Below, in pieces: positions 1,639 to 42,908 of a DNA stretch of 64,000 nt. The stretch comes from an uncultured archaeon (GTDB lineage: Archaea; Asgardarchaeota; Thorarchaeia; Thorarchaeales; Thorarchaeaceae). The position numbers and the translations under genes were made by a program. How positions within the stretch are numbered: position 1 is the first letter of the stretch; each line of letters opens with the position of its first letter. The stretch spans positions 46,440-110,439 of the forward strand of contig CAYYQL010000007.1 of NCBI GenBank assembly GCA_964473825.1. The letters run 5' to 3'. The notes beneath the pieces are model-generated. The model worked only from the letters and a program-made list of their open reading frames with translations, searched no databases and had not been told where the DNA came from.

Positions 1639-2775
1639 GTGAATGATGTTGTCTTCGAGTGTGAGTTTCTTGGTCGAAACCATGGCAGCATAGAGGTGGA
1701 TAGTGACGTTACGGAGATCAACCTTGTTGAGATGGACATTGTCAGCATCGATCTCAGTCCAATTGTCCGCTGTAGTAACCTCGAGCGCCTGACGCTGTCA
1801 GAAAACCCACTTCGTGACATTGACCTTACACCGCTTGCTCAATGTAAGAAACTGCAGGAACTCTGCCTCCGTTGGAATCAGCTTGACCAAGTAGATTTGA
1901 AGCCCCTTGGTCACCTAGACAATATGATCGAGATTGACATCTCATCAAATGGACTCAGAAGTGTTGACCTAGAACCCCTGAGAGGAAAGCATACGATTCG
2001 TGACCTGTACGTCTCTGCCAATGAGATAAATGAGATTGACCTTTCGCCTCTTGTCGATTGTAGGAGTCTTCGCTATCTTGGTCTGACTCATAACCTCCTA
2101 AAGGACGTGAGTTTGACAGCGTTGAGTCAGTGTCCAAACCTTCGCTATTTGGGCCTTACAAGCAACAGAATAGAGAGTATAGACTTGGGACCCCTTGAAA
2201 ACTGCAGCAGACTCGAGAGAGTCGAACTAGAGCACAACGAGATTGAAGAGCTTGACTTGCGCGCATTGGATACGTGTCGAAGCCTCGAGTACCTCAATCT
2301 GAAATCAAATCGGTTGCAGAGTCTTGACCTCGAACCGCTCAAGCGTTCCACACGACTCCGGTATCTGCTGCTCTCATCCAATTCACTAAAGACCATCGAT
2401 TTGTCGCCGCTACAGAACTGCGAGAACTTAGAACAGCTGCTCCTCGACCACAACGAGTTGCAGCATATGGAGCTGGATCCTCTAAGCCAGATACCCAGCC
2501 TTCGCGAGCTGCGTTTGGGAGCGAATGCATTGACAGAGATTGATCTCTCACCCGTCAAAGGCATGCGAAATCTAAGAACCCTTGATCTTTCAGACAACCC
2601 ACTCGAGCCAGTGAATGTAACTCCCCTCTTCTTCTGTGAAGCACTAAGGAAATTCAATGTCGAGAGATCAACACCGGGTAGGGCGATCCGTTTGATGGCT
2701 GATGGGAATGAAAAGGGAAGGGAAAACTTACCGAGGGCTATAAGGGAGATAGAAGAACGGATTGAGTGGACCTAG
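1639..2775 (+). CDS. Leucine-rich repeat protein (22-aa repeats)
   Basis: About 14 tandem LxxLxLxxNxLxxIDLxPL repeats; GGAGGT Shine-Dalgarno before the GTG start. Confidence 0.92.
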   Translation: MNDVVFECEFLGRNHGSIEVDSDVTEINLVEMDIVSIDLSPIVRCSNLERLTLSENPLRDIDLTPLAQCKKLQELCLRWNQLDQVDLKPLGHLDNMIEIDISSNGLRSVDLEPLRGKHTIRDLYVSANEINEIDLSPLVDCRSLRYLGLTHNLLKDVSLTALSQCPNLRYLGLTSNRIESIDLGPLENCSRLERVELEHNEIEELDLRALDTCRSLEYLNLKSNRLQSLDLEPLKRSTRLRYLLLSSNSLKTIDLSPLQNCENLEQLLLDHNELQHMELDPLSQIPSLRELRLGANALTEIDLSPVKGMRNLRTLDLSDNPLEPVNVTPLFFCEALRKFNVERSTPGRAIRLMADGNEKGRENLPRAIREIEERIEWT

Positions 2776-2805
2776 TACTTCTGAGTAAGCTTCAAGTGCC
2801 GCTGA

Positions 2806-35745: not shown

Positions 35746-36294
35746 TCAACCCGAACCGGACTCTCTGTTATGAACAAGGGTTGTTCCTAGCTGTTCGAAT
35801 ACATCAAGAATCCCCTCTCCGGTCTTGGCTGAAGATTCAACGTAAGGCATTCCGTGAGCGTCTGCGAACTCTCTGCCTTCAGATGGAGCAACGACCCTAT
35901 CAGGAAGGTCGGTCTTATTTGCCACTAGAACTAAGGGAATCTCCTTGCCGATTGCGGTTCTAAGTTCGTCGAGCCACTCCTCGAGTACGATAAATGTTCT
36001 GCGTCGGCTAACATCGTAGACCAGCAGTCCACCACTTGAACCTCGATAATACATCGGGCGAAGAATCTGAAAGCGGCTTTGTCCCGCCACGTCCCAGATC
36101 TGCAATTTCACAGTGAGTGGATTACCATGAATAGATGGAATCTCTATATTCTTGACTGCAAACTGACTTCCGATTGTTGTCTTGTAGTCAGTTCGAAAGA
36201 AACCATGAGAAAACCTAGTGACGATTGCAGTCTTTCCAACTGCTCCCTCACCGAGAACAACAACCTTGAACAGATAGTCATACGAGCTACTCAT
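35746..36294 (-). CDS. Rab-like small GTPase (eukaryotic signature protein)
   Basis: G1 GEGAVGKT, G2 TTIG, G3 WDVAGQ, G4 NKTD, G5 SAK; RabF-like IGSQF, KLQIW, RFQIL, YYRGS and LVYDVS. Confidence 0.93.
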   Translation of the reverse strand: MSSSYDYLFKVVVLGEGAVGKTAIVTRFSHGFFRTDYKTTIGSQFAVKNIEIPSIHGNPLTVKLQIWDVAGQSRFQILRPMYYRGSSGGLLVYDVSRRRTFIVLEEWLDELRTAIGKEIPLVLVANKTDLPDRVVAPSEGREFADAHGMPYVESSAKTGEGILDVFEQLGTTLVHNRESGSG

Positions 36295-36458: not shown

Positions 36459-37253
36459 TCAGGTGGAGTTCTCAACCCATGTCAAGAACTTGCCAAGAAG
36501 CGGGTTGAAGACGTTAGGCATGTCTACCATGGGAGAGTGGTCCCCCTTCTTGATCATTGCGATATCCGAACGGGGTAGAAGTCTGTTCAACCTCTGTCCA
36601 ACGCCGGGCCGAAAGACATCATCATCCTCTCCGCAGATGACAAACGTAGGGATCTGGATATCACCCAGTCTTGGTGTGATGTCAAACCTATCGCAGGCCT
36701 TCAAATCCCTGCGCACTACTTCAGACTCGCTTTTCCCCAAGCTTCCTTCTCTCATACGAATTCGGTAGATGTTGGAGTGAACACTCGTCAGATGAGATGT
36801 TACAATGCTTAGATAACTCTCAAACGACTCTATCGCAAGACCAGGCAGTATTCTTGAGGTTTCAAGGTCGGGGGAGGTGGAAACGAGAGCAATTGCACGC
36901 GGTTGGCGCAACTGCTCGTTGAGAACATAGGCCATGACAATGGCTCCCCCCATGGAGTGACCAACAAACACAAAGTCCTTCAGGTCAAGATGTTCCACAA
37001 CCGCTGCAAGCTCGTAGACATATCCATTCTCTATGTCAGCTTCATCAGAAATATCATCAGAGAGACCATGACCCAACAGGTCGGGAACAATGACTCTGTG
37101 AGTCTTGACAAACTCATCTATCTGCATGCTCCAGATGAGGTGAGAAGTCCCGGCTCCGTGCAGAAAGACAACTGGGAAGCCGTTGGAGGGGTCGTCCCTC
37201 TCGTCAATGTCCAAGTAATGCATCCTGTGCCCGTGGTGGTTGAGAAAAGGCAT
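36459..37253 (-). CDS. Alpha/beta hydrolase
   Basis: FLHGAG, DLLGHGLS, GHSMGG, GEDD and GDH motifs. Confidence 0.9.
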   Translation of the reverse strand: MPFLNHHGHRMHYLDIDERDDPSNGFPVVFLHGAGTSHLIWSMQIDEFVKTHRVIVPDLLGHGLSDDISDEADIENGYVYELAAVVEHLDLKDFVFVGHSMGGAIVMAYVLNEQLRQPRAIALVSTSPDLETSRILPGLAIESFESYLSIVTSHLTSVHSNIYRIRMREGSLGKSESEVVRRDLKACDRFDITPRLGDIQIPTFVICGEDDDVFRPGVGQRLNRLLPRSDIAMIKKGDHSPMVDMPNVFNPLLGKFLTWVENST

Positions 37254-37366
37254 GATGTCCTCCTCATTCCATGTTACCGCACAGCGGACATATAGGTCTA
37301 TGTCGCTTGGTCGAATCAACGGTACCTTTTTCTCTGAGTGAGTGCAGCATCAGGCCGGTGGCTCAT

Positions 37367-38746
37367 ATGTCTGACAGGCTCTTTGGAACTACGGGCGTGC
37401 GGAAGGTCTACGGTGACGAGTTCTCCCTTGACATGGCTCTTGACCTTGGTCGGGCACTTGGTACATATCTGAAGAGAGGCGACGTGCTTCTTGCACGAGA
37501 TGCAAGGACCACCGGCTCCATGGTTGAAGATGCATTCTCAGCGGGCGTACTTTCAACAGGGGTCAACGTCGTGCGAGCCGGAGTGATTCCAACACCGACT
37601 CTGGCGTTTCTTACAAGCTATCTGGATATGGACACCGGAGTCATGGTCACAGCATCTCATAACCCCCCCGAGTACACGGGTATCAAGTTCTGGGGTTCGG
37701 ACAGCATGGGCTATACACCTGATATCGAAAGACGCCTCGAAGAGATATACCATTCTCGCGACTTCACAGCAGCAGCATGGGACAGACTGGGAGAGGAAGA
37801 ATATCTCGATGCGCCCGAGTGGACACACATCGATGCGATTGTGAAACGGACAGATGTTGCGGCCATCCATGAGAAACGATTCAAAGTGGTTGTGGACCCA
37901 GGGAATGGAGCGGCTTGTGTACTCACACCCTATCTCATGAGAGAGTTGGGTTGCAGCGTCATCACACTCAACGGCCAACTCGATGGACACTTCCCCGGTC
38001 GAGAGAGCGAACCGGATGAAACAACCCTTGTTGACCTGGCCAACATGGTCAAGTCATCGGGAGCCAATCTCGGCATCGCTCATGATGGGGATGGAGACAG
38101 GGTGGTGTTCGTCACTGAAAACGGAGAAATCGTCAGAGGAGACCGAACGATTGCGCTTCTTGCTCAAGATTTTCTCCAGAGAGAGCAGGGCGGAGTCATC
38201 GTCACCACTGTTGACAGCTCAAAGGTCGTGGATGAGACTGTTGAACAGGCAGGAGGTCGCATAATCAGGACGCCTGTCGGCGATATACAAGTCGCAGTCA
38301 AGATGAAGGAAGAGAAAGGCTTGTTCGGAGGAGAGGCATGCGGGGTCTTCATCCATCCAGACTTTCATCTGGCACCAGAGCCCTTTCTCACTTCATGCCG
38401 TATTCTTGAGATGATGGCATCACACGGAAAGGGTTTCGGAGAGCTGATCTCAGAGATACCTGTATATCCCCTCAAGAAGGCGAAACTGGAATGCCCCAAC
38501 AACAGGAAACCAGCAGTGATGGATAGACTTGCCGAAGTTCTACCAGATGAAATGGAGGAGATTACGGATATATTGACTGTGGACGGGCTTGGCATATCTC
38601 TCAAAGGGGGGTGGGTCCTTGTCAGACCGTCAGGTACCGAACCAGTCATCAGAATAACATGCGAAGCCCAGTCTGAAGAGGCCGTTCAGAAGATTCTTGA
38701 CAGAACGAGAAGTATCATCAGCAACACGATTGCGACGACTAATTGA
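37367..38746 (+). CDS. glmM: Phosphoglucosamine mutase / phosphohexomutase
   Basis: LFGTTGVR, TASHNP, DGDGDR, GGEACG and RPSGTEP motifs. Confidence 0.88.
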   Translation: MSDRLFGTTGVRKVYGDEFSLDMALDLGRALGTYLKRGDVLLARDARTTGSMVEDAFSAGVLSTGVNVVRAGVIPTPTLAFLTSYLDMDTGVMVTASHNPPEYTGIKFWGSDSMGYTPDIERRLEEIYHSRDFTAAAWDRLGEEEYLDAPEWTHIDAIVKRTDVAAIHEKRFKVVVDPGNGAACVLTPYLMRELGCSVITLNGQLDGHFPGRESEPDETTLVDLANMVKSSGANLGIAHDGDGDRVVFVTENGEIVRGDRTIALLAQDFLQREQGGVIVTTVDSSKVVDETVEQAGGRIIRTPVGDIQVAVKMKEEKGLFGGEACGVFIHPDFHLAPEPFLTSCRILEMMASHGKGFGELISEIPVYPLKKAKLECPNNRKPAVMDRLAEVLPDEMEEITDILTVDGLGISLKGGWVLVRPSGTEPVIRITCEAQSEEAVQKILDRTRSIISNTIATTN

Positions 38747-38837
38747 ACACCGAGGATGTAGAGAGCAAATCAGCAAATGCAGACAAGCTTTATAGCACAA
38801 CAGGGTCTCAAACACCTTGAAAACGAGGTCTCATATC

Positions 38838-39248
38838 ATGAGTAATGGCGATGATGATTTCATCAAATCAGAGTTTGAATGGGCTCTGAAGGACCCTACC
38901 GAAGAGAAGCTACGAGGCCTCGGTGAGATTGTTGATACTATCACTAAAAGGCTCGTTGGAGCAATAACTGAGCTTCAGAGCGACCTCTACGAGCTCCAGA
39001 CTGCCGTACAGAGTATGGAGTCGAAACTGAACTCGCTGGACTCCCGGGTGGCATCTGGAGGGGTTGCACCATCAGCTGCAGCCTCTGCATCCTCAACACC
39101 TTCCGCCGCAGGAGCTCCGGATGAACCCATGGCTAAAGCACCCACGCCCAAGCCGGCTCCGGCTGCAGGCCCGGGTGGCATGATGTCTGAACTGAAACAG
39201 CTCCTTGCTGCAAGGAGAAGAAAGGCTGAGGGCGGAGGCGGGGAATAG
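38838..39248 (+). CDS. Coiled-coil plus Pro/Ala-rich protein with a C-terminal Ena/VASP FAB/WH2-like motif
   Basis: Heptad coil (ITELQSDLYELQTAVQSMESKLNSLDSRV), low-complexity linker, terminal GGMMSELKQLLAARRRKA; GAGGT Shine-Dalgarno upstream. Confidence 0.75.
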   Translation: MSNGDDDFIKSEFEWALKDPTEEKLRGLGEIVDTITKRLVGAITELQSDLYELQTAVQSMESKLNSLDSRVASGGVAPSAAASASSTPSAAGAPDEPMAKAPTPKPAPAAGPGGMMSELKQLLAARRRKAEGGGGE

Positions 39249-39253
39249 CCCGC

Positions 39254-39928
39254 TCATATCAAGCGTCGGACATGATTTCTCGGATAGAACGGGCCGGCGT
39301 GTTTCAATAGAGAACTGGAGAATGCTTCAGCCCTCTCGCAGTCCGATTGGACTCCTCTCAACCGGGTTCGTACATCGTAGAATCTCTCGTAGTAACCGTC
39401 TGCCTTGCTAGTCTGGCTCTTGTGACAGCGTAATCCCTCCAGTGCGGTATCATAGCTCTCAGTGACATTGACCATCACGTTAGGTCGTGAGAGAAGGGTG
39501 TTGACTTCCATATGGTAGATACAACTGACTCGATGGGCTCTCTCGAACTGAGTCGCATGTGATGCCCATTCAGCTGCATCAGCAACAATCTTCGCACATG
39601 CTACATGGTTGTTATTGTAGTCCTGCTCGGAGTGGGTGATAATGATCTCCGGATGCCATTCGAGGATTGCCTCAATGATTCGCTTCTCCACACCCCTGTC
39701 AACAGCAAAGTCTTCCCGCTCTTCCGTCAGAAGATGACGGACACCAAGTATCTTGCTGGCCTCCTTCAGCTCTCTGTTTCGAGCTGGACTTCCCGTGAGG
39801 CACATCAGATCCACGTCTACTCCCTGACTGGTATGAAACGCTATCGTCCCACCGGCACCCAAGCATTCGTCATCGGGATGCGCAGTAACAACGAGAATAG
39901 AGCCATCGTCAAAGGAATTCATGGTCAT
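39254..39928 (-). CDS. bshB: PIG-L family de-N-acetylase, BshB-like
   Basis: AHPDDE.LGAGGT, RxxE, HxSQ and AEAF motifs; divergent from bshA. Confidence 0.78.
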   Translation of the reverse strand: MTMNSFDDGSILVVTAHPDDECLGAGGTIAFHTSQGVDVDLMCLTGSPARNRELKEASKILGVRHLLTEEREDFAVDRGVEKRIIEAILEWHPEIIITHSEQDYNNNHVACAKIVADAAEWASHATQFERAHRVSCIYHMEVNTLLSRPNVMVNVTESYDTALEGLRCHKSQTSKADGYYERFYDVRTRLRGVQSDCERAEAFSSSLLKHAGPFYPRNHVRRLI

Positions 39929-40011
39929 CCCAGACCCAGTTTTACTAATCAAGCTTTGGCCCAACCATTCGTCTTAAAACCCACCGTTTGCTGTTCAGTA
40001 CTGTGACCAAC

Positions 40012-41172
40012 ATGAGGATAGGAGTCAATCTATATGCCTCAGTGGGTGGCTCAGGCTACCTCGCGACGCGCTTGGGACAGCACCTTGCCGACCGGGGGCA
40101 CGAGATTCATTTCATCACCTACCAGAGGCCGTTTAGCCTAATGTGGGAGCAATCACGAGGAGTCTATGTTGATCTCGTGGATAGTTTTGATTATCCGCTC
40201 TTCAAGTCAACTGGAACGCCCTACACCATGACTCTTACATCAAAGATAGTGAAAGTGGCTACCGACTCCAAGCTCAATCTCATCCACTCGCACTATGCAA
40301 TCCCTCACGCTATGTCAGCATACATGGCAAGAGAGATCATTGGTATCCCCTATGTGGTCACACTACACGGTTCAGATGTCCACACTCTTGGACTCGATCC
40401 TGCATATCGCCCCGTTGTTAAGCACACGGTAGAAGAGGCAGATGGTGTCACAGCAGTTTCAGAGTTCCTCCAGAAGAAGGCCTATGAGGAACTCGGCATC
40501 GAGAGAGATATTCATGTCATCCCCAACTTCATCGATGTTCAAAGATTCACCCCTATCGAAGGAGTCCGACTCACCGTGGAGAGCGGCTGTGTTTCTCTTC
40601 GCAAATCAGAGGAGCCCGAAGATCTTCATCCAGATGAGATGGTGCTGTTGCATGCGTCGAACTTCCGCCAAGTGAAGAGAGTAGTCGAGCTCGTAGAGAT
40701 CATGAGAATCGTTGTCGACCACTATCCTGATACGCGCCTAGTGATTGCAGGGGATGGACCCACCCGCATGCATGTTGAGCGACGAATAGAGGCCCTTGAC
40801 CTCTGCCAGAATGTGCATCTCTTAGGAGTGAAGAGCAACATGAGAGAAATCATGTGTTCAGCAGACATCTTTCTGCTCAATTCTACCTTAGAGGGGATGC
40901 CACTGGTCCTTTTGGAGGCTATGGCATCCGAACTCCCAGTTATCACGACACCCGCAGGAGGCATACCAGAGCTTGTACGTCCAGGGAAGGACGGTATTGT
41001 CACGAAGGGCTTCGAAAAGGAAGAGTTTGCAGGTGCAGTCCTAGAGTTAATAGAACATGATGCCCGAAGGAAGGAGTTGGGCAAGGCGGGACGAAAAAGA
41101 GTGGCTGAGGATTACTCAGCTGACAAGGTTGTCCCCATGTATGAGGGAGTCTTTAATCGAGCACTGGAATGA
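40012..41172 (+). CDS. bshA: N-acetyl-alpha-D-glucosaminyl L-malate synthase (GT4)
   Basis: YASVGGSG..ATRLG, GHEIHFITY..PF, HYAIPHA, TLHGSD and SNFRQVKRV, all hallmark BshA motifs. Confidence 0.9.
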   Translation: MRIGVNLYASVGGSGYLATRLGQHLADRGHEIHFITYQRPFSLMWEQSRGVYVDLVDSFDYPLFKSTGTPYTMTLTSKIVKVATDSKLNLIHSHYAIPHAMSAYMAREIIGIPYVVTLHGSDVHTLGLDPAYRPVVKHTVEEADGVTAVSEFLQKKAYEELGIERDIHVIPNFIDVQRFTPIEGVRLTVESGCVSLRKSEEPEDLHPDEMVLLHASNFRQVKRVVELVEIMRIVVDHYPDTRLVIAGDGPTRMHVERRIEALDLCQNVHLLGVKSNMREIMCSADIFLLNSTLEGMPLVLLEAMASELPVITTPAGGIPELVRPGKDGIVTKGFEKEEFAGAVLELIEHDARRKELGKAGRKRVAEDYSADKVVPMYEGVFNRALE

Positions 41173-42908
41173 TAAAACGGAGATGCCAACTTTTGAGAGA
41201 GAGCGTAGCTGAAGTATATGAGGACTACATCTGGAAGGAGGAAATGCAGGACGCCGCCCAGTATCTCTATAATTCCCCTCCAATCTATTTCGGCGGCCTT
41301 AAGGAGAGGGTAGGAAGACTTCGAGAGGCATATACAGAGACGCAGTGGTTCACTGACGAACGAATGGAGATACTTGAGAAGGCCCTGGAAAGGATAAATC
41401 GCGAGCTGGGCGCTCTCACACCAGCAGTTAGAGAGGAAATCTCAGAGCTTCGGCAGGGAGCCATAGAAGGAGCACACCAGAGCATCGTCTTTGGCGGCCC
41501 ATGCTATGTTCTGAACAAGGCCGCAACAGCATCGATACTTGCAGATATCACATCTGACGATGATAGTCCCGTAGCCGCATATTACTTCGTTGCAGACTAT
41601 GATGAGGTTCAGGCTGAACTGACCAACACCAGAACACCACTGCTGGGATCTTCAGGCAATCTGCTCAGTATTCCGGTTCCCAAGGAGTTCAAGCATTCGC
41701 CCGTAAGTGTTCTACCCCTTCCCGAGTATACCTGGTACGCAGAAGTAGAAGAGAGTATCCGCATGGGATACAGACCGATGATCAAAGACCTCGACAACAG
41801 GGCACGTATCATATACGAAGAGAGACTTGAGCAGATTCTCTCCATAACAAGATGGGGTTTCGTGAACTCAGATACACTGGGGGAATGGGCTCGACGAGTC
41901 CTTGCCCGTCTGTTCAATGTCGAGGGAAACTTGGGAATACCAATTGTCGCATATTCAGACCCTCAGATACGGAAGCTGGCAACTCTTGGAATGGAGTTCC
42001 TTCTGAAGAGAGAGAACCGAGAGAGATTCTTGAAGGCCCAAGATCAAGCAACCGACAGGATCATCGAACTCGGTCTAGAGCCCGGCTCCGGTAGAAGAGA
42101 CCGCTCCTACGTTCCGTTTCTATACGAGTGTCCTGAGAAAGGCTGCAACAGGAGTAGATTCGAACTGCAGTATTATACTAGGGAAGACACTGCGACGCTG
42201 TCAGGTAGGTGCCCATCATGCCATCAGTACTTCACAATCGAGGTCTCAGCAGACAACCCTGACTTGAGTGACCATGCCGACTACCTATCGCCCCGTGTAG
42301 ATTCACGGCAGTTTATCGTGGACATGATGATTCCCACTGTGTGTCATATTGGGGGGCCAGGTGAGACCGCTTATTATGCCCAGGTGATACCCGTGGCCGA
42401 CGCTCTAGACATTCCGTTCCCAGAATTTGTGAAGTATCCACGGCTCTTCTTCAACACACCATGGAGTGAGGCTCTTGCAAACCAGTTGGACAAGAGGGGT
42501 GAACCGGTTCTACATGGTCGTACACTCTTCAAACTGCTAGGAGAGTCAAGTGCAGCCAGAAGAAAAGAGAACTATGATGAGATGAATTCTGCCATTCAGA
42601 GACTGGGCGATCACATCAGAGACCAGCATGATGTCATAGTGAAGAGGGTGGAAGGGATAGAGAAGCAGAGAAAGAACTCAAGCGGCGAAGAAGATGAGGA
42701 GCTTCAAGGCATCAAGTTTGACCTCGAAATGTATCTCAGCTGGACATATGGGCGATATTCGGCCGAGAAGTCCGTGCAGGAGGCCTCTTGGTCCTGGATA
42801 GAGTGGGCAATAAACTCTGGACTGGCGGACCTGTTCGGTCCATACGAGAGAAGCTATGTTGAGCAGCTTAAGAATGGAGCCACGATGTGGATAAACTTCA
42901 TGATATAG
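41169..42908 (+). CDS. bshC: Bacillithiol biosynthesis cysteine-adding enzyme BshC-like
   Basis: GAHQSIVFGGPCYVLNKA (cf. GQQ..LFGGPLY...K), SPRVDSR and IGGPGETAYYAQ; C-terminal coiled coil; 4-bp overlap with bshA. Confidence 0.82.
   Translation: MIKRRCQLLRESVAEVYEDYIWKEEMQDAAQYLYNSPPIYFGGLKERVGRLREAYTETQWFTDERMEILEKALERINRELGALTPAVREEISELRQGAIEGAHQSIVFGGPCYVLNKAATASILADITSDDDSPVAAYYFVADYDEVQAELTNTRTPLLGSSGNLLSIPVPKEFKHSPVSVLPLPEYTWYAEVEESIRMGYRPMIKDLDNRARIIYEERLEQILSITRWGFVNSDTLGEWARRVLARLFNVEGNLGIPIVAYSDPQIRKLATLGMEFLLKRENRERFLKAQDQATDRIIELGLEPGSGRRDRSYVPFLYECPEKGCNRSRFELQYYTREDTATLSGRCPSCHQYFTIEVSADNPDLSDHADYLSPRVDSRQFIVDMMIPTVCHIGGPGETAYYAQVIPVADALDIPFPEFVKYPRLFFNTPWSEALANQLDKRGEPVLHGRTLFKLLGESSAARRKENYDEMNSAIQRLGDHIRDQHDVIVKRVEGIEKQRKNSSGEEDEELQGIKFDLEMYLSWTYGRYSAEKSVQEASWSWIEWAINSGLADLFGPYERSYVEQLKNGATMWINFMI

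Follow-up and report, generated by a model that had tools for sequence, protein, structure and literature searches.

A small coiled-coil protein family of Asgard archaea with a conserved end helix: a candidate actin-binding factor

What might a 136-aa protein with no domain match be doing in an archaeon that has its own actin? The question is raised by positions 38838-39248 (+ strand, stop codon included) of the window, by which we mean the whole 64,000-nucleotide stretch of DNA that was analyzed. A sequence-only reading had proposed that this locus encodes an Ena/VASP-like actin regulator with an N-terminal heptad coiled coil, a linker rich in Pro, Ala, and Ser, and a C-terminal F-actin-binding-like motif, and that annotation pipelines would call it hypothetical.

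The gene, its family, and the predicted architecture

We found that the open reading frame is open and encodes a protein of 136 aa (P0001) with the sequence as quoted. As the start codon, the ATG at 38838 is favored over a TTG at 38817, since the 31 Thor homologues in the alignment all open with M-x-x-(D/E)DDFI. Two elements read from the upstream sequence, a TATA-box-like TTTATA (38789..38794, +) about 46 nt 5' of the ATG and a Shine-Dalgarno-like GAGGT (38825..38829, +) 8 nt 5' of it, are consistent with a putative promoter and ribosome-binding site belonging to the gene itself.

A search of a collection of 5.8 billion proteins returned 133 homologues of 118 to 170 aa. Nearly all were labelled Thorarchaeota or Promethearchaeota and, as had been foreseen, "hypothetical." HMMER, run exhaustively on 1.84 billion cluster representatives, gave 14 matching clusters. 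From the homologues we built a family profile (A2) and searched 400 genomes of the same phylum with it at a cutoff of E ≤ 1e-3; it matched 318. In the window's own family 80 of 85 genomes had a match, most at E values of about 1e-54 to 1e-43, and in the largest other family 124 of 135 did, mostly at 1e-22 to 1e-14. Overall, matches reached down to 1e-54 in Thor and lay between 1e-24 and 1e-9 in other families of the phylum. Thus, with 133 homologues and a profile matched in 318 of 400 genomes, the open reading frame is a real gene, beyond chance. A wider profile (A4) found named members in Loki-, Hel-, and Hodarchaeota and in Promethearchaeia. The actin reading would have lost much of its appeal had homologues occurred mainly in lineages that lack actin. 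We found that the named ones are all Asgard, except for one partial record labelled Bathyarchaeota, and that the genome studied here encodes actin and gelsolins.

Sequence searches of the protein against Pfam and the PDB gave nothing above noise; the names that surfaced (DUF4349, FliD, BLOC1_2, CCDC53, and others) all scored far below the cutoffs, and we rejected them as coiled-coil noise. Searching the ESM Atlas with the tail gave no usable match. No longer fused relatives were found among proteins of 297 to 2000 aa, which is weak evidence, the profile used being dominated by Thor sequences. Nor did we find a description of the family in the literature searched.

AlphaFold2, run with a 25-sequence alignment, predicted three helices (residues 4-18, 22-73, and 114-131) and a disordered stretch between the second and the third (residues 74-113). 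The N-terminal helix (residues 4-18, 38847..38891, +; DFIKSEFEWALKDPT...) is followed by a 52-residue helix (residues 22-73, 38901..39056, +) that is predicted with a pLDDT of 87-95 and is presumed to form an oligomerizing coiled coil. In one heptad register, 12 of the 15 a/d positions of this helix are occupied by L, I, V, M, or F. Therefore, judged on predicted helix and register together, the N-terminal coiled coil that had been proposed is real. The linker (residues 74-113, 39057..39176, +; pLDDT 42-56) is rich in P, A, and S and variable between homologues. Its description as Pro/Ala-rich was accurate, and "polyproline" would not be, since it contains no run of two or more prolines. It includes APTPKPAPAAGP at residues 101-112 and one conserved short motif, MAKAPTPKP (residues 98-106, 39129..39155, +). 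The C-terminal motif was likewise found where it had been placed: GGMMSELKQLLAARRRKA occupies residues 113-130 (nucleotides 39174-39227), and the predicted basic helix, which we treat as a putative docking motif, spans residues 114-131 (39177..39230, +; GMMSELKQLLAARRRKAE). This helix carries a net charge of +3 and lies at the extreme C terminus, after the flexible linker.

In members from distant families the parts come in the same order: first the N-terminal helix, then a coiled coil, then a disordered linker rich in Pro, and last the C-terminal helix. A 152-aa candidate for the Lokiarchaeum ossiferum B35 orthologue (G138:C1:2628805-2629245) ends ...SLRGSIMDELKTLFSKRRTDDDDDD. These proteins form an undescribed Asgard family defined by an N-terminal helix and heptad coil, a P-rich disordered linker, and a C-terminal helix of the form hR..h..ELK.hF.+h+, and P0001 carries all of these parts.

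Conservation and likeness of the end helix

One check proposed for the locus was whether homologues keep the terminal motif but differ in the linker, and the alignments show this pattern. Among the 31 Thor sequences, the invariant tail residues are M116, E118, L119, K120, L122, L123, A124, A125, R126, and R127, and those of the N-terminal region are E12, F13, W15, A16, L17, D19, and P20 (EFEWAL.DP). The Thor linker varies in both length and sequence except for MAKAPxPKP, in which A101 is invariant and P102 nearly so; P102 is also nearly invariant across the phylum. When Thor members were compared with non-Thor members, the end helix was the best-conserved segment at 44% identity, followed by the N-terminal helix (36%), the linker columns (28%), and the coiled coil (23%). 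In the phylum-wide tail core, hR..h..ELK.hF.+h+, the E and L are invariant and the K is nearly so. Examples are PVSLRGAIMGELKELFAKRR from Loki-type genomes and PLNVRQAVTGELKEIFARMRARAE, ASLRMQLNSELKKAFSRIK, and PINVRRALNMELKQLFTKLKTQSE from deeper families. Deeper members end in ...ELKEIFARMRARAE or ...ELKQLFTKLK, and the endings ARMRARAE, SRIK, and TKLKTQSE also occur. On these alignments, the AARRRKA ending is a Thor-specific, derived form of a more general helix.

That the polar residues E118 and K120 are fixed along with the hydrophobic ones points to a specific protein contact. Taken with the model, a stable rod, a floppy arm, and a tail whose polar residues are fixed across the phylum together are the signature of a putative short linear docking motif. 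The arms of the two lineages are built differently. Loki-type members carry XPPPPP tracts directly before the end helix, with proline runs of 4 to 5, whereas the longest run in Thor members is 3 and in the window protein 1. The Loki-type order, polyproline and then helix, is that of eukaryotic actin-assembly factors.

In human VASP, GAB occupies residues 223-239, FAB residues 259-278, and the tetramerizing coiled coil residues 343-380, and FAB plus the tetramerization domain suffice for actin bundling (PMC10340426). The FAB sequence quoted in the sequence-only reading is correct and matches residues 259-278 in that paper. We ran the 20-residue FAB from that paper against HMMs built on the archaeal tail, with 5000 shuffles of FAB and the open reading frames of this genome (40,879 six-frame frames, 3.48 M residues) as controls. 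With the phylum-wide tail profile FAB scored 16.1 bits, compared with 11.4 for the best shuffle and 12.3 for the best non-self frame in the genome. With the Thor-only profile the values were 20.5, 11.9, and 8.9 bits, and with the non-Thor profile FAB scored 12.4 bits and the best shuffle 9.3. None of the 5000 shuffles reached the observed score with any profile. The VASP GAB peptide, corresponding to the WH2-like site, scored 0.1 bits against the tail profile. By this measure the likeness to FAB beats chance at the scale of a proteome and would not be significant at the scale of a database. Thor sequences show it most strongly, and it weakens across the wider family. Because the RRRKA ending is a Thor-specific derivation, the likeness is one of analogy or convergence and not of descent; its decay outside Thor fits convergence on a helix-plus-basic-cluster design and does not fit common ancestry. 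When the tail profile was run against PDB sequences, only designed coiled-coil peptides matched, and nothing related to actin did; since no VASP construct among the matches includes FAB, this search does not bear on the FAB likeness.

Does this make the protein a member of a known family? Pfam models for WH1/EVH1 and VASP_tetra matched neither P0001 (E ≤ 0.1) nor 10 relatives (E ≤ 10), and profilin-type (G/A/L/S)PPPPP tracts were absent from P0001. The protein shares with the EVH2 region of Ena/VASP a coiled coil that oligomerizes (here, is presumed to), a flexible stretch with prolines, and an RRRK(A) motif on a short helix. However, the VASP coil is a C-terminal right-handed tetramer, whereas the archaeal coil is N-terminal and made of ordinary heptads. 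The archaeal protein, at 136 aa against 380 for VASP, also lacks EVH1, a GAB or WH2-like KLRK, and GPPPPP tracts. We therefore rejected membership in Ena/VASP. The three modules that had been claimed, the coil, the linker, and a helix resembling FAB in sequence (16.1-20.5 bits), are present; EVH1, GAB, VASP_tetra, and polyproline are absent. "Ena/VASP-like" is apt as an analogy at the level of the motif and not as a family name, RRRKA being specific to Thor.

The WH2/beta-thymosin motif (PF02205; N-WASP, WAVE, WIP, MIM) likewise consists of a short amphipathic helix with basic residues behind it, comes after a Pro-rich region, is often C-terminal, and is portable between unrelated proteins. 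The archaeal helix differs in being longer and in running directly into the basic cluster. PF02205 matched nothing in P0001 (E ≤ 0.1), in 10 relatives (E ≤ 10), or in the whole genome (E ≤ 1). The LKKT/V signature (L-K/R-K/R-T/V) was absent from the aligned tails, which read ...ELKxLLAARRRKA or ...ELKxLFAKRR, and the only other conserved motif of the linker, MAKAPxPKP, is not WH2-like. Thus, membership in the WH2 family was also rejected. Failing these tests lowers the case that the protein is a member of either family, but not the case that it may work like one.

Two more distant systems offer a comparison. Arcadin-2 of Pyrobaculum (PDB 5LY3), a crenactin regulator, is reportedly a small archaeal protein that uses a C-terminal helix behind a linker to dock on a filament protein of the actin family. 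It differs in belonging to another archaeal phylum, another actin (crenactin), and another gene context, and it has no sequence similarity to the present family, the tail profile finding nothing in the PDB. BimA of Burkholderia is said to be a trimeric bacterial Ena/VASP mimic with Pro-rich and WH2 motifs. By analogy, mimics of this type share the logic that an oligomerizer, a flexible arm, and a short actin-binding helix may suffice for elongation or bundling; they differ in having recognizable WH2 motifs and in being secreted or surface virulence factors, neither of which was seen in the archaeal protein.

In the genome studied here, a six-frame scan found the tail only once, in P0001 (39.8 bits, with the next frame at 12.3). 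Searching five Loki-type genomes with the tail profile gave a different picture. The helix lies at the extreme C termini of three Arf/RagA-like GTPases (...RSQIMSELKDIFKK, ...ELKDLFSKRKR, and ...ELKELFQKRKK), at an internal site of an LRR protein, and in a HEAT-repeat protein that carries the family core, and it occurs three times in a 310-aa protein with cysteine pairs and no Pfam match. Its presence on GTPase, LRR, and HEAT proteins therefore marks the end helix, as far as these alignments go, as a portable putative docking module.

Actin and the competing explanations

Compared with yeast and rabbit actin, the actin of this genome (contig C53:1660-2796) reaches 528-530 bits. Directly downstream of it a two-domain gelsolin is encoded, and a further gelsolin-domain open reading frame lies elsewhere. 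The Pfam profilin model had no match in this genome or in any control genome, so that its silence here carries no information. In the literature searched, the only Asgard actin regulators named are profilins and gelsolins, and a preprint on Lokiarchaeum motility states explicitly that formins, Ena/VASP, and other actin polymerases have no part in the picture.

The analysis shows how the protein is built, which parts are conserved, and that its end helix resembles FAB statistically; that it forms an oligomer and docks, with actin as its partner, is what we infer. P0001 would be a small cytosolic adaptor in which the coiled coil of residues 22-73, capped by the N-terminal helix, holds at least two chains together. 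Each chain would project an arm of about 40 residues rich in P, A, and S and ending in the 18-residue basic helix (MMSELKQLLAARRRK), which would serve as a short linear docking motif for a highly conserved partner. With actin as that partner, the helix would lay its hydrophobic stripe (M, L, LL) against an actin surface, for example in the cleft between subdomains 1 and 3 or on the side of the filament, and its RRRK cluster would touch acidic residues on the surface of actin, in the manner proposed for VASP FAB and WH2-type helices. Being oligomeric, as we suppose, the protein would be multivalent and could link filaments by tethering or bundling them, or keep monomers or filament ends near one another. 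Since the Thor arm lacks polyproline, delivery of profilin-actin is not expected in this lineage; the Loki-type relatives with PPPPP tracts might be capable of it.

Actin is the best single candidate for the partner because of the likeness to FAB, the polyproline-then-helix layout in Loki-type members, the portability of the motif, the vacant regulator role, and the extreme conservation of the target. We nevertheless hold this identification tentatively, at somewhat below an even chance, and we grade the whole picture of a coiled-coil oligomer docking on actin by way of flexible arms, that is, a candidate actin-binding factor, with the same caution. Several observations weigh against it. A formal WH2 signal is lacking, GAB reaches about 0 bits, the FAB likeness falls to its lowest value with the non-Thor profile, and the PDB matches of the tail include nothing related to actin. 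The gene is distant from those for actin and gelsolin and is not next to one for profilin, so genomic linkage lends no help. Thor gelsolins are of the 2DGel or ProGel forms; a 340-aa GelX-like protein from a related Thor genome (L071) has a P/T-rich linker but matches neither the tail profile nor the family profile, and no gelsolin carrying the tail motif was found in the five Loki-type genomes searched. Polyproline and profilin are also mismatched: Loki profilins are reported not to bind VASP polyproline, whereas a Thor profilin did, and it is the Loki-type members of the family that have the tracts and this Thor protein that has none. Finally, the same helix ends Arf/Rag-like GTPases, which would fit a role at the membrane or in a GTPase network equally well. 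A more specific version of the actin reading, in which the family is an Asgard actin assembly or bundling factor whose oligomeric arms carry an actin-binding helix and, in Loki-type members, also polyproline that binds profilin, is in our estimate rather doubtful.

The occurrence of the helix on other proteins bears most directly on the explanation that survives best after actin. Here the protein would be a generic adaptor, its coil and arm presenting the end helix multivalently to some other conserved Asgard protein, for example a component of small-GTPase or membrane-trafficking systems. The three GTPases, the LRR and HEAT proteins, and the three-copy protein that carry the same helix in Loki-type genomes favor such a role, as does the lack of a formal WH2 signal. 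So does a Ras-family GTPase gene (35746-36294) that lies 2.5 kb upstream of the coiled-coil gene in the same syntenic block and is 81-85% identical across Thor genera. However, this explanation puts forward no specific partner and leaves the above-chance likeness to VASP FAB unexplained. In this genome the helix occurs only in P0001, and the GTPase gene is not adjacent. Furthermore, an antibody to Lokiactin co-precipitates an Arf GTPase (UYP48373.1), a profilin, and five gelsolins (bioRxiv 10.1101/2025.11.30.690169), so that a link to GTPases is compatible with actin. A generic adaptor of this kind is possible, and we lean against it.

A less likely explanation is that the end helix, amphipathic and polybasic, targets the membrane in the manner of MinD/FtsA or of Ras tails, which would make the protein a membrane-tethered coiled coil. 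The position of the helix at the extreme C terminus after a flexible linker, and its net charge of +3, are what such a helix would show, and Arf/Rag-like GTPases carry the same tail at their ends. GTPases of this kind require anchoring to a membrane, and archaea are not known to have CaaX prenylation. The physical properties of the helix fit poorly, however: its hydrophobic moment is low, at 0.23 (Eisenberg scale, 18 residues), and its mean hydrophobicity is -0.35. In addition, E118 is invariant and K120 nearly so across the phylum while the rest of the protein is at about 25% identity, and membrane helices would usually be expected to conserve their character and not exact residues. We consider this explanation unlikely.

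Could the tail be a MIM1-type motif that recruits the MIT domain of Vps4 in the ESCRT system, or a basic tail with nucleic acid or the ribosome as its target? ESCRT-III proteins carry, behind a Pro-rich linker, a short terminal helix containing Leu and Arg/Lys, a layout similar to that seen here, and the RRRK cluster could bind nucleic acid. However, the MIM1 consensus, (D/E)xxLxxRLxxL(K/R), fits ELKQLLAARRRK or ELKELFAKRR in no register, no Snf7/ESCRT Pfam model matches, and the helical part of the protein is too short for an ESCRT-III core. Beyond RRRK, nothing points to nucleic-acid binding. Both versions of this explanation are thus very improbable. A PIP-box reading of the tail was ruled out on reading the motif.

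True descent from the EVH2 region of Ena/VASP, or bona fide membership among WH2 proteins, deserves scarcely any weight. The FAB-like score of 16-20 bits and the Pro-rich-then-helix order of Loki-type relatives are what can be said for it. Against it stand the missing EVH1, GAB, VASP_tetra, and WH2 domains, the N-terminal coil of ordinary heptads, and the derivation of RRRKA within Thor. Only some eukaryotic lineages are known to have Ena/VASP, and this range misfits vertical descent from archaea.

Equally remote is a function tied to the flanking genes, such as a scaffold for a sugar or thiol pathway. In Thor the gene is flanked upstream by a glmM-like phosphoglucosamine/phosphomannomutase gene (PGM) and downstream by a divergent PIG-L/BshB-like gene, then GT4/BshA-like and BshC-like genes. 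The order PGM, coiled-coil gene, PIG-L (opposite strand), GT4 is kept in all 20 Thor loci and in 8 of 8 with 15 kb of context. However, the entire block of about 11 kb, the Ras-family GTPase gene included, is syntenic across the Thor family, and adjacency within it carries little information. Because the whole block is syntenic within one family, the Thor neighborhood is uninformative on function. The nine Loki-type loci that we compared, from three GTDB families, have entirely different neighbors: a 206-aa all-helical protein without a Pfam match is encoded on the same strand in seven of the nine, and Elf1-type zinc-ribbon proteins are encoded nearby. Conservation of the motif extends far past the lineages that have the block. 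We therefore set gene neighborhood aside as a clue to function.

Meaning for Asgard biology

The family is small, unannotated, and nearly universal in the phylum, and its best-conserved element is F-actin-binding-like and in some lineages follows profilin-type polyproline. The window adds that the Thor form lacks polyproline, that the FAB-like RRRKA is derived within Thor, that the motif occurs a single time in this genome, and that Thor synteny says nothing about function. The candidate is easily tested, the protein being 136 aa long and the helix an 18-residue peptide. If the assembly-factor reading is true, the multivalent logic of filament tethering and elongation known from Ena/VASP or WASP would have existed in archaea before eukaryotes, built on a helix that is not a canonical WH2. 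Should the partner be actin, the assembly logic of eukaryotic actin networks would move back into archaea; should it be another protein, the portable helix would mark a new docking system that the family has in common with Arf/Rag-like GTPases. Either outcome would bear on how the cytoskeleton and membrane-trafficking networks were wired in the ancestor of eukaryotes.

Thiol-pathway genes and the Ras-family GTPase

In this Asgard archaeon, four genes within window positions 37271-42908 make up a thiol pathway of the bacillithiol type. They comprise a glmM-like phosphoglucosamine/phosphomannomutase (PGM) gene (37271-38746, plus strand), a gene for a PIG-L/BshB-like deacetylase (39254-39964, minus strand), a gene for a GT4/BshA-like glycosyltransferase (39988-41172, plus strand), and a BshC-like gene (41169-42908, plus strand) whose start overlaps the stop of the glycosyltransferase gene. 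We found the same order, PGM, PIG-L/BshB-like, GT4/BshA-like, BshC-like, in 20 of 20 and in 8 of 8 loci from Thor, the window's own family.

The real start of the window PGM is probably residue 33 of the ORF as printed, the internal methionine of MSDRLFGTTGVRK; it was placed there because the Pfam match begins at residue 36. The longest ORFs of PGM and of an alpha/beta hydrolase (36459-37319, minus strand) lie head to head and share 49 nt. Farther upstream is a Ras-family small GTPase (35746-36294, minus strand; Pfam Ras, 162 bits). Its sequences in eight Thor genomes drawn from different genera share 81-85% identity. This conservation is far above that of the neighboring genes, which have 40-65% identity among Thor genomes.

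Actin and gelsolin-domain proteins

The window's own genome encodes actin on contig C53 (CDS at 1660-2796, plus strand, from L001:1474-2613; Pfam Actin match at 1687-2790, plus strand, 437 bits); in comparisons with the actins of yeast and rabbit, this protein scored 528-530 bits. Approximately 0.5 kb downstream, in convergent orientation, is a gene for a 207-aa two-domain gelsolin (domains at C53 3334-3855, minus strand, locus L001). A Thor relative encodes a 340-aa GelX-like protein (L071:486-1508, minus strand, G319:C108) in which a single gelsolin domain is followed by a P/T/A-rich linker of approximately 120 residues and a C-terminal domain without an assigned fold. It had no match to the coiled-coil/ELK-helix family profiles.

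Repeated ELK-type helices and neighbors in Loki-type loci

The ELK-type helix, with which family members end, occurs three times in a 310-aa protein (L046:1315-2244, minus strand, G128:C1): MMNELKGLFSRYKNK near the N terminus, SLRTALMMELQRLFAARRQ internally, and SLIEELRLFFARRSN at the C terminus. This protein has no Pfam match, and it contains cysteine pairs that are zinc ribbon-like in appearance.

In five Loki-type loci, genes for extended Elf1-type zinc-ribbon proteins (L025:7664-8284, minus; L030:5918-6496, plus; L031:4443-5024, plus) lie 1-3 kb from the family gene. A helical extension brings these proteins to 170-240 aa, and they end in a conserved DDPGFLEF/W tail. In seven of the nine Loki-type loci, the gene immediately next to the family gene, and co-oriented with it, encodes a putatively all-helical, Lys/Glu-rich protein of approximately 206 aa without a Pfam match (L027:3888-4511, minus; L029:5999-6619, plus; L024:5375-6049, minus; and others). 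This helical neighbor could be a partner of the family protein.
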